Positions 2,716 through 33,579 of a stretch of DNA of 38,097 bases are shown here, piece after piece. The number at the start of each line of letters is the position of its first letter. The stretch's first letter is position 1. Made by a program: the position numbers and the translations under genes. Below the pieces are notes generated by a model, which made no database searches, was not told the origin of the DNA, and saw only the letters and a list, made by a program, of their open reading frames with translations. Origin of the DNA: a virus. Lineage: Duplodnaviria; Heunggongvirae; Uroviricota; Caudoviricetes. The DNA lies in IMG/VR virus record IMGVR_UViG_2778261087_000005; one strand, 5' to 3'.

Positions 2716-3000
2716 TTAGAACGGGCAGCCGGTACGGTGTTCCCAGTCGTATTCCGCCTGGGCGTAAGCAACTGCCGAAATGAAATCGTTGTAGGCCTCG
2801 CCAGCTTTATCGCTGCGAAGTCCTTCGTATGGGCTGGAGTCAATCGGTATGGAGAAGTGGAAGAGGCCGGACGGCTCTTTTGGCATCATGTCGATGATTT
2901 TCTGTGCCCGGTCGTCGATCCACTTCTCTTTCTCGTCGTCGAGCTGCTGCTCAACCCAGCGCCGATCTTCGATTCGGTCGTAAGTGAGGTATGCGTTCAT
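2716..3000 (-). CDS. Hypothetical acidic phage early protein
   Basis: 94-aa ORF; SD AGGAG 7 nt upstream of ATG 3000. Confidence 0.6.
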   Translation of the reverse strand: MNAYLTYDRIEDRRWVEQQLDDEKEKWIDDRAQKIIDMMPKEPSGLFHFSIPIDSSPYEGLRSDKAGEAYNDFISAVAYAQAEYDWEHRTGCPF

Positions 3001-4149: not shown

Positions 4150-4580
4150 CTTTAAAAGCTCCCCGGCCTGGGTAAGCACCTCGCTGGCGTCTACGTTAAG
4201 CAGTAGTGGCGCCGTTTTTTTATCTGCCATACACACCCCTCTGTTTGTTTACCGTCAGCCCCTCGCAAAGAGCTGCTGGTAAATCGCTTTGCCATAATTG
4301 CCGCTCTTCCTGAGCCCGCCTATGGTCCGACGCATGGTTTACTGTCGCGCCGTTCGACTGACCAAATCTCCACTTCGCCGCTGGCTAACTTCGCTCAGCT
4401 GTCGATGTTTCGTTTCGATGGATTGATAATGTACCAATAGTTCATTCATGTAAAGTACCATAAGTACATTTTCTGTGAATAGAAAGTTCATATGCAATTA
4501 TCTTTATGAACTTTAAGGAGAAATATTTTTGAGTTTTTTATTGATTGAGGCGAGGGGGGGGATGGGGCTGGTTTGATTTA

Positions 4581-5168
4581 TTAGAGGTTCGTCACATCAA
4601 CAAGCCTTGTGTGACCATTGAAAGTTGCGAAAAGTCCGCCGTCTGGCTCAACTACTGAAAGTTCAGCGTATCGAAGGAAGTCTGTTTTGATAACGGACAT
4701 CAACACCTCTCCGGTATCAATGTTTATGACCTCAAGCCGGTGCGCGTAAAAATCATCTTTGTTTTTGCTGCCGGCAAACGATAGGGCGATGTAGCGCCCA
4801 AATTCAGATATGGACGAACTGATGAGGTGAGTGGAAGTTTCTATCTTGAATAACTCTTTCCCGGTGTTATCCATGACTATGGCTGCAGCCATGTTGTTGT
4901 CTTTGCCGGTATGTATAGAAAATAAAAATCGCCCGTTAACAGCTATGCATTGAGGCTTAGGAGAAAGCTGCCCGCCGAGCTTAACCATAAACATGAATTT
5001 TTCATTCTTCAATACCGCCAGAGTGTCATCTCTGAGATTGCTTTCATCACGCTTGAAAGCACCTAGCTGCCAACATTTATCGTGGCTTAATTTGCAGGTG
5101 ATGAAGTGGTCGCCAAGCTCGTATAAGGCGCTTCCATCACTCAGATCTGTAACCTTAATTGCTTCCAT
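4581..5168 (-). CDS. Unknown 195-aa protein co-operonic with the CI repressor (cargo gene)
   Basis: ATG 5168 lies 11 nt downstream of the cI stop with SD GAGGAAG; no TM segment; visibly more AT-rich than flanking phage genes; no family recognised. Confidence 0.7.
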   Translation of the reverse strand: MEAIKVTDLSDGSALYELGDHFITCKLSHDKCWQLGAFKRDESNLRDDTLAVLKNEKFMFMVKLGGQLSPKPQCIAVNGRFLFSIHTGKDNNMAAAIVMDNTGKELFKIETSTHLISSSISEFGRYIALSFAGSKNKDDFYAHRLEVINIDTGEVLMSVIKTDFLRYAELSVVEPDGGLFATFNGHTRLVDVTNL

Positions 5169-11057: not shown

Positions 11058-11384
11058 ATGAAGCCCAAGAAGCTAAATGCTGAGCAGCAATACAAATTAG
11101 ACCTTGAGTTGGTCAAGAAGAAACCTGCGAACCGTACAGAGGCAAAAGCCCATTTGGCGGCGCAGTTACGGATCAGCAAGTACAAGGCGCAGAACTCATC
11201 AAAAATCCGCGCAGGCAGTTTCAGGGGGCGGAAGAAGGTGCATTTCAGTAAGGCCGAAGACGAGGCCAGGGCAGCACTAAATAAAGCCAATGCCATTAGA
11301 TTTTCCGAAGGGGAGGTCGAATCCGTCGATACGGATCGAATCTCAGAAAGTAACAAACGCTGGCGCGGGAGAACTGCTGACTAA
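11058..11384 (+). CDS. Hypothetical basic (Lys/Arg-rich) protein
   Basis: ATG 11058 within track ORF 11040..11384; stop overlaps the next ATG (TAATG). Confidence 0.55.
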
Positions 11385-11632
11385 TGTCTGACTGGAACAT
11401 TGCAGCAAAGCCGCAGGAAGATCGCGATAAGGTTAACGTTGACCTGGCTGCCTCCGGAGTGGCGTACAAAGAGCGCCTGAATATGCCGGTTATCGCTGAG
11501 GTGGTGATGCGCGAGCAGCCAGAGCATTTGCGTGATTACTTCCTTGAGCGCCTGAAGTTTTATCGCGAGAAGTCGATAACTTTACCGAAAGTTAGCGATC
11601 CGTTTTACCTGAAACAGGAGGAAGGGAAGTGA
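11384..11632 (+). CDS. Hypothetical protein (82 aa)
   Basis: Translationally coupled on both sides (TAATG upstream, GTGA downstream). Confidence 0.55.
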
Positions 11633-28626: not shown

Positions 28627-29352
28627 ATGACACCTTTGAAAGAAATTGGCGAGTGCCTGATTGGTACTGGAGACAGTGAATACTTCTTCCGCCCATCATT
28701 CCGTAACATGACTCGGATCGGCGAACCAGAACATATCGTCCGCACCTTCTATGCGCTGTTCAATGAGGATGTGGCAAAGATGCTTGAAGCGGCGCGCGAA
28801 ATTCACAGTGCGATACCAGAGCATCAGCGCAGATTTTACGCCCACTATTTCGGTGACGTTTCGCTGCCACGCTGGGCACTTGATGCAGCAGGCTCTGCCG
28901 CGTTTGTGCGTGATGCATTACTCTCGGCTATTAACGTCATTCAGTCCTGCTGTGACGAGGACGTTTCTGAACTGACAGGATGGCATGAGCCATCACGCAC
29001 TGGACGGCGAACGTTTGTATGGCGCCGTGGCGCGCTGCCGCCGGAGAACCTTATTCTGATAGCTCAGTCGCTGATCATGCATGGCGTTATCGGACGGGCG
29101 AAGGTTCGTAAGTTGCAAAAGCACGAAAGCAAGGAAACGACACCGGAGTTCCATGCAACTGAATACATCATGGCGGCGCGAAACCATTTTGGGATCAGCA
29201 GGGAAGAGGCTGAAAACCTTACCATGACCGAATTCGCCATGATGCTTAACGCCAAATACCCTGACCAGAAAGGCTTCACCAGGGAAGAGTACGACGCGGT
29301 TATGGACGATGATGAACGTCGTTGGCAGGAAATGATGAAACGCGAAAATTAA
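28627..29352 (+). CDS. Tail assembly chaperone (G/GT position)
   Basis: ATG 28627 with SD GGAG; lies between the major tail and tape measure genes; no frameshift partner identified. Confidence 0.5.
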   Translation: MTPLKEIGECLIGTGDSEYFFRPSFRNMTRIGEPEHIVRTFYALFNEDVAKMLEAAREIHSAIPEHQRRFYAHYFGDVSLPRWALDAAGSAAFVRDALLSAINVIQSCCDEDVSELTGWHEPSRTGRRTFVWRRGALPPENLILIAQSLIMHGVIGRAKVRKLQKHESKETTPEFHATEYIMAARNHFGISREEAENLTMTEFAMMLNAKYPDQKGFTREEYDAVMDDDERRWQEMMKREN

Positions 29353-29457
29353 AAAAAAGCTATATAGCCATTTTTAGTAGGGGGGATTTGGAGTAGTTCT
29401 ATGATCGTTTTCATCTCTATCTGGTAGCATCCTTTCGAACTAATAGGAGATGTGAAA

Positions 29458-29817
29458 ATGAAAAAAGTCTTTATCCTTGGATTGGGTTTATTATCTTTCT
29501 ATGTCAGTGCCTCTGAATTTTCTGAGCAGGATTTAATCGAGTTAGGAAAAAAAGAAATCCGGACTGAAATCTCATTGCCAACATCTTTTTCACAGGAAAA
29601 ATTTATTCCTGATACTCGTGACAATCCATCTTCTCGAAGTGGAAATGTTTGCCTTAAAGTCTCTGGAAGAAAGAATGACGGAACTGCAATGGATCTAGCT
29701 GTCTACGGAGTGCACATAGCCACAAAAGGTGAACAAGCTACTTTTGGTGAAATTTTTAAATTTATTGGCGAATCTGAAATGCAAAGTTCAGAAGCCAAAG
29801 AATCTTGCAAATTTTAA
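29458..29817 (+). CDS. Secreted hypothetical protein (AT-rich cargo gene before the tape measure gene)
   Basis: ATG 29458 with SD AGGAGA; classic Sec signal peptide MKKVFILGLGLLSFYVSAS/E; AT-rich; own terminator. Confidence 0.65.
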   Translation: MKKVFILGLGLLSFYVSASEFSEQDLIELGKKEIRTEISLPTSFSQEKFIPDTRDNPSSRSGNVCLKVSGRKNDGTAMDLAVYGVHIATKGEQATFGEIFKFIGESEMQSSEAKESCKF

Positions 29818-29867
29818 ATTCGCCATGATGTTATAATACCTCAACATCATTGGATTTCATTAATGAA

Positions 29868-29888
29868 CCCGCTACGGCGGGTTTTTTT
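29868..29888 (+). terminator. Intrinsic terminator
   Basis: CCCGC-uacg-GCGGG followed by UUUUUUU. Confidence 0.7.
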
Positions 29889-29905: not shown

Positions 29906-32233
29906 ATGTCTGAAAAAGCAGGCGAGATTTATTACGACATCGAGGCCGATGTTTCTGGCTTGCTCAAGGCGCAGGGAAAGGCTAATAAGTCGCTCGACTC
30001 CATCGGCAACTCGGCGACCAATGCAGCCAAAAAGATGGGTGAGTTGCAGACGAATATCAACCGCGTCGCAGGGGCTATTGCCGCATCACTTGTTGTTGAC
30101 TGGGGTAAGGCGTTTCTCGTTGCTGCTGACAACATGAGCCAGCTCAACGCGCGTATAGAGAGGCTTACTGGTAGCGCAGCGACAGCCTCTCAGACAATGC
30201 AGAGCCTGATGCGTATCAGTTCGGCAACTGGCGGTTCTCTTCAGGACACTGCGAAGCTGTGGGAAACTCTCAGCACGGCGTTGCGCGATACCGGCGCGAC
30301 GAACGGCCAGATCATTCAGCTCACCGAAACACTTCAGAAAATCGGGCGTATTGGTGGATCCTCATCCGAGGAAATGGCGAATGCGCTCCGTCAGTTCGGC
30401 CAGTCCATATCCTCGGGCACTATCCGTGCTGAGGAGTTCAACTCCATCCTTGAGCAAATGCCAGAACTGGCGCGGCAGATCGCCGCCGGGATGGGTGTAA
30501 GCATTGGAGAACTTCGCCAGCTGATGCTGGACGGGAAACTGACGGCAGAAGAAGCCCTCAACGCTATTCAGAAGCAAACCGGATCAGTCAACGCTGAGTT
30601 CGAGAAACTCCCGCGTACGCTTTCACAGGCTAATACCGCGCTGACAAACTCATTCCTGTCGATGATCGATTCAGTTAACCAGGCAACAGGTGCGAGTAAC
30701 GGCCTGGTGGCAGTTATCGATTCAATGACAGCTGCGCTCGACAGACTGGTTGGTAAGGCAATCTCAGCGGATGCGCAGATTTCAGATCTGAACAGCACGG
30801 CAGAAATGTTTACCCGCCGGGCCCGGACCTGGTCATGGCTGGGGCTTGATGGTTGGGAGGCACAAAACAAAGCGCTGGCTGGGCTGAGCAATAAAGCCGC
30901 GATTCTGGTTGGCGACCTGGCGGCTGTAACCAAAGAATCACAGGCCGCCGCCAACACCAAGCCGATCGAGATAAAAACCACGGCAACGACCACCGGGAGC
31001 AAGTCGAAAGGTGGAGCGTCAGCCGCTAAGAAAGAAGCGGATCAATACGCTAAAGCGCAGGAAACCGTTAACCAAAAACTGGATGAGTTGCGGCAGAAGG
31101 CCGAGCTGTCAGCGGGGAGTGTTGGCGAGTTATCGCGAGCGCAGGCCGTGCTTAATGCACAGCAGTCTCTCGGTAATACCGCCACGCAGGAGCAAATCAT
31201 GCTGGCCGGTCAACTGGCAGGTAAAGCCTGGGACAATGCCAACGCATTGCGTGAGCAGGCCAAGGCTGAACGGGAGCGCACAGAGACTGCCAATAAGTTC
31301 AGCACAATCCAGGGGAAAACCAGCAAAACAGCCGGCCTGGATAGCCAGTACCAGAAAGACATTGCTGACATCCAGCTTTACGCCCAACTTTACCCGCAGA
31401 AGATCGGGGAGGCTGAGGCAGCGCGTGCCGCTATCGAGCAGCAGTATCGTGATCAGCGTAACGCTGCAATGTGGGAAGAATGGGCGCAACAGAACGCGGC
31501 CACTCAGGCAGCGGCAGCGGCTTTCGACTCTCTTGGTTCGGTGGCCAGCAATGCGCTGACTGGCATTGTCACCGGAAGTATGTCGGCCAGCGATGCGATG
31601 CGCAGTATCGGTATGACCGTGCTGAACAGCGTTGTTAACTCGTTCGTTCAGATGGGCATTGAGTGGGTTAAGTCGGCCATTATGGGCCAGACGGCCACTA
31701 CCGCGGCGGTTGCAGCATCCACCACGGCGCAGGCAGCAGGCATCGCAACCACGACAGCTACTTCGACGGCAGCGGCAGCGGCTACTACGGCGGCATGGAC
31801 TCCTGCGGCCATCATGTCCTCCGTGGCTTCATTCGGTGGCGCTGTTGCTATTGGTCTTGGCGCGATGGCTGGCATCCTGGCATTGTCTGGCAAGCGCAAG
31901 AATGGCGGCCCGGTGAGTGCAGGCGGAATGTATCAGGTCGGCGAAGGGGGCATGCCTGAGATTTACCAGGCCAGCACCGGTAAGCAGTACATGATTCCTG
32001 GTGATAACGGTCGGTTGATCAGCAATAAGGACATTACTGCCGGGGGAGGTGGAGGGGTGGTAATCAACATCCAGAACTACACGTCATCCTCTGTCGATGC
32101 GCAGGCCGGTACGGATGCTAATGGTGGCGTGACTGTGGATGTGATCGTCGCTGACCTGAATAACGGTGGGCCCATCAGTAACGCCATTACCAGCAACATG
32201 AACGTTAAACGAACGCCGAGGGGGCAGGGCTGA
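29906..32233 (+). CDS. Tail tape measure protein
   Basis: About 775 aa; long helical Ala/Gln-rich protein with a Gly-rich C-terminal region; SD GGAG 7 nt upstream of ATG 29906. Confidence 0.85.
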   Translation: MSEKAGEIYYDIEADVSGLLKAQGKANKSLDSIGNSATNAAKKMGELQTNINRVAGAIAASLVVDWGKAFLVAADNMSQLNARIERLTGSAATASQTMQSLMRISSATGGSLQDTAKLWETLSTALRDTGATNGQIIQLTETLQKIGRIGGSSSEEMANALRQFGQSISSGTIRAEEFNSILEQMPELARQIAAGMGVSIGELRQLMLDGKLTAEEALNAIQKQTGSVNAEFEKLPRTLSQANTALTNSFLSMIDSVNQATGASNGLVAVIDSMTAALDRLVGKAISADAQISDLNSTAEMFTRRARTWSWLGLDGWEAQNKALAGLSNKAAILVGDLAAVTKESQAAANTKPIEIKTTATTTGSKSKGGASAAKKEADQYAKAQETVNQKLDELRQKAELSAGSVGELSRAQAVLNAQQSLGNTATQEQIMLAGQLAGKAWDNANALREQAKAERERTETANKFSTIQGKTSKTAGLDSQYQKDIADIQLYAQLYPQKIGEAEAARAAIEQQYRDQRNAAMWEEWAQQNAATQAAAAAFDSLGSVASNALTGIVTGSMSASDAMRSIGMTVLNSVVNSFVQMGIEWVKSAIMGQTATTAAVAASTTAQAAGIATTTATSTAAAAATTAAWTPAAIMSSVASFGGAVAIGLGAMAGILALSGKRKNGGPVSAGGMYQVGEGGMPEIYQASTGKQYMIPGDNGRLISNKDITAGGGGGVVINIQNYTSSSVDAQAGTDANGGVTVDVIVADLNNGGPISNAITSNMNVKRTPRGQG

Positions 32234-32730: not shown

Positions 32731-33200
32731 TGCCATCATTCCGTCAATATAAGCAGCAACGGCCGACGCGCGGACTGTACGACACCATTACGTTCTACCA
32801 TCCATCCTTTGGCTACGTCCGCCTGGTCGATAAGCAGTTCTTCCCGAAGACGCTCGGCGGGCAGACGTACACGCCAGCGCGCTTTGAAATCGAAGAGAGT
32901 CAGCAGAGCGGTACTCCGGTGATAGACGCGACGGTGAAGTTAGGGCGGCTGTCGTCGGACATCAAAGCTCTGATGAAGCAGTGGAAGGGGGCGGCCCGGC
33001 TGACGGCCATCACGGCCACAAGGCAGATCTTCGATAGCGGGGACGTGTCTGTGCCGATTAAGTCCTGGCAGTTATACGTCAAGACAGTGGACATCGACGC
33101 TGACTCCGCGTCAGTAACCCTGTCCGTCACCAACCCGCTGAACAACAACATCGGAAGGCTCTATGACCCAACGGAATATACCGGCCTGCAGTACCTCTGA
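32730..33200 (+). CDS. Minor tail protein
   Basis: 156 aa from ATG 32730, which overlaps the upstream stop (TGATG). Confidence 0.55.
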   Translation: MPSFRQYKQQRPTRGLYDTITFYHPSFGYVRLVDKQFFPKTLGGQTYTPARFEIEESQQSGTPVIDATVKLGRLSSDIKALMKQWKGAARLTAITATRQIFDSGDVSVPIKSWQLYVKTVDIDADSASVTLSVTNPLNNNIGRLYDPTEYTGLQYL

Positions 33201-33579
33201 TTTTGTTTGGAAGGTGATCGGCTTGCCGTGGTCTAACCGGGCCTGCTCTTTCGAGGAGGTCGATTGTTGGGGCCTGGTGGTGCTGTATTACCGGCACGTT
33301 CTCGGCATTGAACTGCACCAGACGCCGGACTACGAAGCCGGTGAGGACTTCTTCACCTGCTACCAGGGTGATGTCGTTTTCTGGCGCCCGGTCGACAAGC
33401 CAGTCGAGGGAGGGATATTCGTCGGGTACCGCGGCGCGCAACCGGCACACGTTGGCTTGGTGCTGAACCGAAAAGCCATTCATGCGCGCGGGGAAAACGG
33501 CAGCGTGAAAGAAGATTCGTTGCTGGTCATTCGGCGTGCATTCACCAAAGTGGAGTTTTTCGAATATGGCGCTGGTTGA
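33163..33579 (+). CDS. Tail-associated NlpC/P60-family peptidase (lambda gpK C-domain-like)
   Basis: 138 aa; DCWGLV cysteine motif and downstream His residues consistent with NlpC/P60; SD GGAAGG 4 nt upstream of ATG 33163. Confidence 0.6.
   Translation: MTQRNIPACSTSDFVWKVIGLPWSNRACSFEEVDCWGLVVLYYRHVLGIELHQTPDYEAGEDFFTCYQGDVVFWRPVDKPVEGGIFVGYRGAQPAHVGLVLNRKAIHARGENGSVKEDSLLVIRRAFTKVEFFEYGAG

Follow-up and report, generated by a model that had tools for sequence, protein, structure and literature searches.

A probable moron cassette for a predicted exported protein at a polymorphic tail-operon junction of a lambdoid Escherichia coli prophage

We analysed a lambdoid Escherichia coli prophage (IMG/VR virus record IMGVR_UViG_2778261087_000005, Caudoviricetes) over a window of 38,097 nucleotides, by which we mean the whole stretch of DNA, and focused on the region 29353-29888, which is situated within the tail operon, between the gene for a DUF6246 protein and the tape measure gene. 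This region contains an ATG-initiated open reading frame (ORF) of 119 amino acids (aa) on the plus strand (29458-29817, stop codon included), the precursor of a predicted exported protein, and very likely the ORF is a moron, i.e. accessory to the phage and coding for a product that is exported. An insertion of this kind had been put forward in a preliminary description of the DNA, and it is supported by empty sites in related loci, by a foreign base composition at the third codon positions and by the features of the predicted signal peptide. The fuller statement, in which the product of the moron is exported, takes up a periplasmic fold and acts in superinfection exclusion, is in our judgement a little short of evenly balanced.

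The junction between the DUF6246 and tape measure genes is a polymorphic slot with four states, being either empty or filled with a cargo predicted to be a soluble periplasmic protein, a lipoprotein or a membrane-anchored protein. This is clear from a junction survey which covered 98 junctions overall, and for which 86 loci were fetched via the DUF6246 gene and not via the cargo. Both flanks were present in 84 of these loci (set L017-L101), which were classified as follows: a 124-aa lipoprotein was present in 62/84 (gap of ~502 bp), the junction was empty in 11/84 (gap of 34-54 bp), the window ORF was found in 8/84 (gap of 534-551 bp), and a 97-aa protein that has two cysteines and a transmembrane helix at its N-terminus in 3/84 (gap of ~405 bp). 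Enterobacter, Klebsiella and E. coli all harbour sister prophages with the lipoprotein at this position. Over the whole survey, 12 related loci had empty junctions of 34-54 bp, and just this distance separates the DUF6246 and tape measure genes in relatives with ~91-96% identical DUF6246 proteins, while in phage CobraSix the junction measures 12 bp. The earlier claim that a conserved tail gene order is interrupted at this position is thus borne out by the relatives. All three cargos bear export or membrane-targeting signals in sequence checks, and they differ in GC content at third codon positions (GC3), which is 26% for the window ORF, 37% for the 97-aa protein and 46-53% for the lipoprotein, compared with 56-62% for the backbone. 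The 97-aa protein (4317-4610 in locus L087, and also present in L088 and L100) is encoded by an AT-rich gene, has no match in PHROGs, and is unrelated to both HK97 gp15 and the product of the window ORF.

The limits of the variable segment, i.e. the moron cassette (29349..29865, plus strand), were derived from DNA alignments of the window with loci carrying the lipoprotein (L002/L003), with an empty locus (L004) and with L006. We place the left edge inside the last codons of the DUF6246 gene (~29349), because the tail of the DUF6246 protein changes with the type of cargo, while the right edge is marked by a conserved hairpin. The C-terminal tail reads ...KREN-stop in the window (29338-29375), ...KRENLKKTI-stop in L006 and ...EREKSAKKAA-stop with the lipoprotein, and a single T-to-A change in the window creates the earlier DUF6246 stop codon. 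The type of cargo follows the DUF6246 allele, with 10/10 ORF-bearing loci falling into one DUF6246 cluster. Co-variation of the cargo with the tape measure protein was also considered and was rejected, as loci bearing the ORF and loci bearing the lipoprotein share 98-99% identical tape measure proteins. A cargo which tracks the DUF6246 allele and is shuffled with respect to the tape measure gene fits cassette exchange, the crossover lying at the conserved hairpin or to its right.

The cassette is a moron at the archetypal moron site, and is the positional equivalent of gene 15 of phage HK97. Gene 15 is the archetypal moron, and its product gp15, which is made from the prophage, prevents superinfecting phages from injecting their genomes (PMC3594210). 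This junction is the place where the moron concept began, and its one characterised cargo blocks the entry of phage DNA. Two hallmarks of a moron, insertion between otherwise adjacent genes and a shift in composition, were found for the window ORF, whereas a third, a terminator of its own, was not. Since relatives have empty sites and frameshifted alleles occur, the ORF is dispensable for the phage. This bears on the possibility that the product is a tail component or tail-assembly factor belonging to a conserved morphogenetic module, as might be expected from its location inside the tail operon and adjoining the tape measure gene, and from the name "predicted phage tail protein" that one database source gives to a sister-lipoprotein homologue. 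Such a role is largely refuted by the empty-site relatives (11/84, with near-identical flanks) and by the other genes present instead in further loci, and an N-terminal export signal is incompatible with assembly of the tail in the cytoplasm, while the frameshifted alleles lie in otherwise intact tail modules; we regard a tail function as close to untenable.

The ORF itself is a real protein-coding gene under purifying selection and not a chance ORF, based on a ratio of non-synonymous to synonymous substitution rates (dN/dS) of 0.11-0.25 at a dS of 0.41-0.47, obtained in comparison with diverged alleles of 89% and 82% aa identity. RefSeq has a hypothetical protein (WP_033817211.1) at identical coordinates in four complete E. 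coli genomes, and these genomes match the window at 100%. The GC content is 36-40% across the region compared with ~55% to either side, and is 36% in the ORF compared with 52-57% in the flanking genes, while its GC3 of 26% compares with 56-62% in three neighbouring tail genes; the AT-rich 119-aa ORF of the preliminary description was thus confirmed in coordinates, composition and constraint. The ORF is preceded by a Shine-Dalgarno sequence read directly from the DNA (AGGAG, 29445..29449, plus strand), located 8 nt 5' of the ATG, and TAATAGGAGATGTGAAAATG is unchanged across all alleles of the ORF.

The protein starts with MKKVFILGLGLLSFYVSASEF, and residues 1-18 (MKKVFILGLGLLSFYVSA; 29458..29511, plus strand) form a predicted Sec signal peptide of the signal peptidase I type. 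The assessment was a rule-based check only, in which the N-terminus is laid out as MKK, followed by VFILGLGLLSFY and by VSA before S, giving an n-region with a charge of +2 and an uncharged hydrophobic core of ~13 residues. Cleavage is most likely after A18, as the V-x-A at residues 16-18 is present in all three diverged alleles although the adjoining residues vary, and with these features the predicted signal peptide of the preliminary description was upheld. There is no lipobox ([LVI][ASTVI][GAS]C) within the first 35 residues, and no second hydrophobic segment was detected by the rule-based check. The short h-region followed by V-x-A conforms to the pattern of a cleavable signal, and the protein does not pass as a single-pass inner-membrane anchor, with a KD19 maximum of 1.55 compared with 2.43 for the membrane anchor of HK97 gp15. 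The predicted mature protein (29512..29814, plus strand) has ~101 aa, an isoelectric point of ~5 and two cysteines (C65 and C117), which are invariant within the ORF family. The diverged alleles P0002 and P0003 have a cysteine at position 15 of the signal peptide (in SFC and TFC, neither giving a valid lipobox), where the window has Tyr15 (29500-29502). This Cys15 is two residues away from the aligned position of the lipobox cysteine in the sister family, and may be a relic of a lipoprotein ancestor, as far as can be judged from the alignment.

The structure of the protein was predicted with AlphaFold2 using two alignments, one with the four sequences of the ORF family and one in which the ORF and lipoprotein families were merged. 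The outcome of this check, which had been suggested in the preliminary description, was mixed: the four-sequence alignment gave a mean predicted local distance difference test (pLDDT) score of 51, which is too poor to use, whereas the merged alignment gave a pLDDT of 77 and a predicted template modelling (pTM) score of 0.68, with averages of 73-91 per ten-residue block over residues 21-100, on the assumption that the two families are homologous. This model has a helix at residues 23-35, strands at 42-51, 59-71, 81-90 and 93-103, and a short C-terminal helix bearing C117. The fold would thus consist of an N-terminal helix and a four-stranded antiparallel sheet of a generic cystatin/NTF2-like type. 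A Foldseek search of the model against the PDB and viral models gave no match with E<=0.001.

The assumed kinship between the ORF and the 124-aa lipoprotein was assessed in several ways. The two share the site, the downstream hairpin, an approximate length, an N-terminal export signal and a cysteine pair, and C65 and C117 of the ORF align with C65 and C123 of the lipoprotein, both near-invariant in their family, in the global alignments made with MAFFT and with hhalign. The lipoprotein matches the phrog_2320 profile with E=1.9e-32, while the window ORF does so with E=0.005, and a pairwise BLASTP comparison of the two proteins gave E=0.003. With hhalign, the probability of a match between the ORF and the lipoprotein family was 92.8% with the signal peptides included and 54% (E=1.3e-4) for the mature regions alone, and in a shuffle test 8/5000 shuffled mature ORF sequences reached the score of the real one against a hidden Markov model of the mature lipoprotein (p ~0.002). 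Positions P41, S43, F44 and G75 are invariant over both families in the MAFFT alignment. When the core motif of the lipoprotein is traced in the ORF, P41, S43, F44, C65 and G75 are kept, whereas D38, G66, N72, Y77, G79 and F83 are replaced, so that the hallmark of the lipoprotein (DPxSAQFR...VCGEINGKNGFGAYxGF) is mostly lost. The rise in pLDDT on merging the families is a further likeness. An exhaustive HMMER profile search started from the ORF, covering 1.84 billion representative sequences, recovered only the ORF's own cluster and no members of the lipoprotein family, and a PDB sequence search with the lipoprotein family gave chance-level matches to reovirus sigma-1 only. Taken at sequence level, shared ancestry of the ORF and the lipoprotein is likely, at about two chances in three. 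The lipoprotein differs in having a lipobox (LAGC) and a predicted lipid anchor, and is far commoner at the junction than the window ORF. Its GC3 of 46-53% (~50%) contrasts with the 26% of the ORF, and for this reason replacement by a distant homologue looks more like the history of the site than divergence in place.

Under the mechanism that we propose, the gene would be expressed in the lysogen, and its product would be exported by Sec, cleaved after A18 and folded as a soluble domain of ~101 aa in the periplasm, with a single disulfide between C65 and C117. The modelled helix on a four-stranded sheet would provide a shape typical of binder and inhibitor proteins, and the protein would attach either to a host component that is exposed to the periplasm and required for phage entry, or to some part of the tail of the incoming phage (the tape measure or tail-tip proteins). 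Binding would then block infection after adsorption, amounting to superinfection exclusion at the envelope. Exclusion is the best functional guess because there is a precedent at this site, the cargos all carry envelope-targeting signals, and exclusion proteins acting in the periplasm are known, although for the window protein it is a tentative assignment by analogy which may well be wrong.

The precedent at the site is shared in layout and not in sequence. Like the window ORF, HK97 gene 15 is flanked by the tape measure gene and by the gene that occupies the chaperone position (PMC3594210), is short and AT-rich (189 bp, 33-34% GC compared with 36%), and encodes a protein targeted to the cell envelope, as is predicted for the window protein. 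Superinfection exclusion has been shown experimentally for gp15 (PMC3594210), and is extended to the window protein by analogy. The proteins themselves are dissimilar: gp15 has 62 aa, an uncleaved membrane anchor and no cysteines, and belongs to phrog_5031 (YebO-like, inner membrane), whereas the window protein has 119 aa, a cleavable-type signal and two conserved cysteines, and gave no match to phrog_5031. The tail modules differ as well, with DUF6246 and TMP_3 in the window prophage and G/GT with a lambda-H-like protein in HK97.

Further parallels to the predicted product are found in two other groups of exclusion proteins. T4 Spackle is described (PMC7677548) as a protein whose signal is cleaved and which is soluble in the periplasm, has a single disulfide and inhibits the incoming tail lysozyme. 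It shares with the window protein, as predicted, its small size, its origin from a phage and its export, and sets a mechanistic precedent for the blocking of an incoming tail enzyme by a binder located in the periplasm. Spackle is however an all-helical bundle encoded among the early genes of a virulent phage, whereas the window protein is modelled as helix and sheet and is encoded in the tail operon of a temperate phage, and there was no sequence or fold match between the two. The other group comprises T5 Llp, which is reported (PMC9586334) to be a one-disulfide lipoprotein binding FhuA on its periplasmic side, and the Cor lipoproteins of T1, phi80 and N15. These are again small exported phage proteins with one disulfide (predicted for the window protein), which jam an outer-membrane receptor from the periplasmic side and are encoded near tail or receptor-binding genes. 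They differ in being lipid-anchored and shorter, and in lying beside the gene for the receptor-binding protein, whereas the window ORF adjoins the tape measure gene. A comparison of the window ORF with the Cor family (phrog_1119) gave no match at E<=0.1, while the sister lipoprotein matched it with E=0.018 in the signal peptide region only. The Tai tail-assembly-interference systems were considered as well and rejected, as these are located mainly upstream of the packaging module and not at this junction.

The distribution of the protein bears on a second reading of its function. Judged by sequence, the protein is nearly an orphan: among 5.8 billion proteins searched there were four clusters, representing copies with 98%, 89% and 82% identity and one frameshifted copy, a PDB sequence search gave nothing for the ORF family, and there was no match to the ORF at DNA level or with tblastn in 50,697 phage records. 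All copies found sit at the DUF6246/tape measure junction, which is also the sole location in the 4/5,426 complete E. coli genomes with the ORF. These four genomes come from cattle, beef or produce, the exact protein sequence is present on 668 contigs across the Enterobacteriaceae, and E. marmotae, Enterobacter hormaechei and E. vonholyi have variants of it that are near-identical. Such a distribution would suit a lysogenic-conversion or host-fitness factor not concerned with exclusion, which might for instance inhibit a protease or a cell-wall hydrolase in the periplasm, or help bovine-associated E. coli to withstand stress or to colonise, and so would the modelled fold, which resembles cystatin, latexin and NTF2-like inhibitor and binder scaffolds. 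Many morons indeed serve host physiology and not exclusion (PMC3594210). The searches of Pfam, NCBIfam and PDB sequences nevertheless gave no likeness to a known virulence or inhibitor family, and only one cargo from this junction has been characterised, in any phage, which acts in exclusion (PMC3594210); we consider a host-fitness function somewhat unlikely. Within the frameshifted copies, an A7-to-A6 slip in the run at 29546-29554 (GGAAAAAAAG) cuts the protein to 79 aa in L012 (6001-6240) and L013 (106-345); these two loci differ from each other by single-nucleotide polymorphisms, and the 79-aa form is also on record from a 5.23-Mb NCBI genome. The slip could represent pseudogenisation, homopolymer switching or a sequencing error.

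Several results weigh against an exported exclusion protein expressed from the prophage. The structural result is partly circular, because merging the alignments assumes the homology of the ORF and the lipoprotein, and a confident model was obtained only in this way. BLASTP of the window protein against gp15 gave no alignment with E<=100. Neither Pfam nor NCBIfam contains anything for the protein that would link it to an exclusion or defence family, there was no match to the PADLOC defence-protein models at E<=1, and the lone match in PHROGs is the weak one to the uncharacterised family phrog_2320 (E=0.005). Frameshifted copies exist, and the gene is thus sometimes lost. A consensus scan of the spacer (29353-29457) revealed no sigma-70 -35/-10 promoter, so that expression from the repressed prophage is putative. 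Finally, the preliminary description had credited the ORF with its own terminator, and this did not hold, as the hairpin in question is also found at empty sites and behind the other cargos.

This hairpin (AACCCGC-TACG-GCGGGTT, 29865-29884, with a T-run up to 29888; 29865..29888, plus strand) is terminator-like, ends ~15 nt 5' of the tape measure start codon and adjoins the 5' side of the tape measure ribosome-binding site, irrespective of whether a cargo is present. It belongs to the phage backbone and not to the ORF, because it is present at the empty site and behind every type of cargo, with a stem that covaries (CCCGC/GCGGG compared with CCCACC/GGTGGG): matching hairpins are located at the empty junction of L004 (AACCCGCTTCGGCGGGTTTTTT, 2277-2300), behind the lipoprotein in L002/L003 (AACCCACCACTCGGTGGGTTTTTTT, 2740-2767 in L002), with compensatory changes in the stem, and behind the 97-aa cargo in L087 (4609-4632). 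In HK97, gene 15 is followed by an analogous ACCCGCTA...GCGGGTTTTTTT hairpin (ACCCGCTATCAAGCGGGTTTTTTTT) directly 5' of the tape measure start; it is near-identical and in the same place (L015, 1399-1423), despite the unrelated tail module. The minimum-energy fold at the empty site of L004 instead pairs the 3' half of the hairpin with the region of the tape measure ribosome-binding site. The hairpin could serve as the crossover point for cassette exchange, as a brake on tape measure expression, or as both, and could still terminate transcripts from the cassette, in which case a transcript made in the lysogen from a cassette promoter would stop at this backbone element. The only candidate promoter element is the extended -10-like motif TG(G/A)TAGCAT (29422..29430, plus strand), which diverged alleles have kept although the non-coding DNA around it is only 74-90% identical between them.

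Besides an XRE-type repressor, replication genes and NinG, the lambdoid prophage has a Q antiterminator, a lysis cassette and a late operon. The Q antiterminator of lambdoid phages makes late transcription read through terminators, and since the prophage has one, readthrough of the hairpin by late transcription is to be expected. The ORF would be transcribed in lytic growth regardless, because of its location in the Q-dependent late operon. A third reading places the function itself in the lytic cycle, with Q-antiterminated late transcription leading to late export of a protein which masks receptors against loss to debris, or modulates the envelope before lysis. For T5 Llp, a proposed role is the masking of receptors, which would spare progeny from being lost on cell debris. 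The orientation of the gene within the late operon, the lack of a demonstrable sigma-70 promoter of its own and a downstream hairpin that is a backbone element, leaving no self-contained transcription unit, are all consistent with a lytic role, and expression in the course of lytic infection is known for both T5 Llp and T4 Spackle (PMC9586334; PMC7677548). This does not account for the conservation of the extended -10-like motif together with a strong ribosome-binding site amid diverging non-coding DNA, and the similarly laid out HK97 gene 15 is expressed from the prophage, with strong AT-richness being typical of independently regulated morons (PMC3594210). We therefore see a lytic-cycle role as very unlikely.

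Returning to exclusion from the prophage, a more far-reaching version would have the window protein and the lipoprotein together form a new exclusion family whose members share one disulfide and a cystatin/NTF2-like fold and are either soluble or lipid-anchored, with the junction as a dedicated exchange site for envelope-targeted exclusion genes and the incoming tail, met in the periplasm, as the point of action. This version is unlikely to hold in full, and if it is true, the targets might for instance be the tape measure or the NlpC/P60 tail-tip protein (33163-33579), in the same way as cystatins inhibit papain-like peptidases. We know of no prior link between a fold and mechanism of this type and phage exclusion, and our searches revealed none. 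The very common lipoprotein family phrog_2320 gains a testable hypothesis (exclusion) from the comparison, and near-isogenic prophages which differ in the cassette alone constitute a natural experiment on exclusion specificity. For annotation, small AT-rich genes just 5' of tape measure genes are to be viewed as candidate envelope-acting accessory genes and not as tail proteins.

The genes on either side of the cassette belong to the tail backbone. The DUF6246 gene (28627..29352, plus strand; PF19759, E=8.6e-73; phrog_791; RefSeq start) comes after genes for a tail terminator and for a major tail protein with an Ig domain, and the tape measure gene (29906..32233, plus strand; PF20155, E=3.6e-57; phrog_1538, E=3e-187; RefSeq start) follows the cassette. 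The upstream gene had been called a tail chaperone in the preliminary description, and while its position agrees with this, the label rests on position only, because no solved relative was found in the PDB and no overlapping -1 frame extension of the G/GT type was found in the gene. A canonical G/GT frameshift was rejected, as TTTGGGA at 29188, the only slippery site in frame, would yield a shortened and not an extended product; the chaperone of this type of tail may be unframeshifted or fused.

Some further features were noted in the window. Between the stop codon of the ORF and the backbone hairpin there is an AT-rich inverted repeat, CATGATGTT...AACATCATTG (29828-29853), which is not kept in the diverged alleles of L016 and L010. 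A small RNA in the 3' region was considered and rejected, as Rfam gave only sub-threshold matches to istR (25.8 bits compared with a gathering score of 45, E=0.005) and rsmX, which together span 29766-29888 (plus strand), i.e. the 3' end of the ORF and the terminator hairpin, and which are most likely driven by the terminator. According to RefSeq, the prophage also encodes a GamL host-nuclease inhibitor (window ~2716-3000; L014, 5861-6145) and a homologue of the DNA polymerase III theta subunit (window 11384-11632; L014, 14529-14777), and beyond the window two acyltransferase genes and an IS3 element are located at the right end of the prophage.

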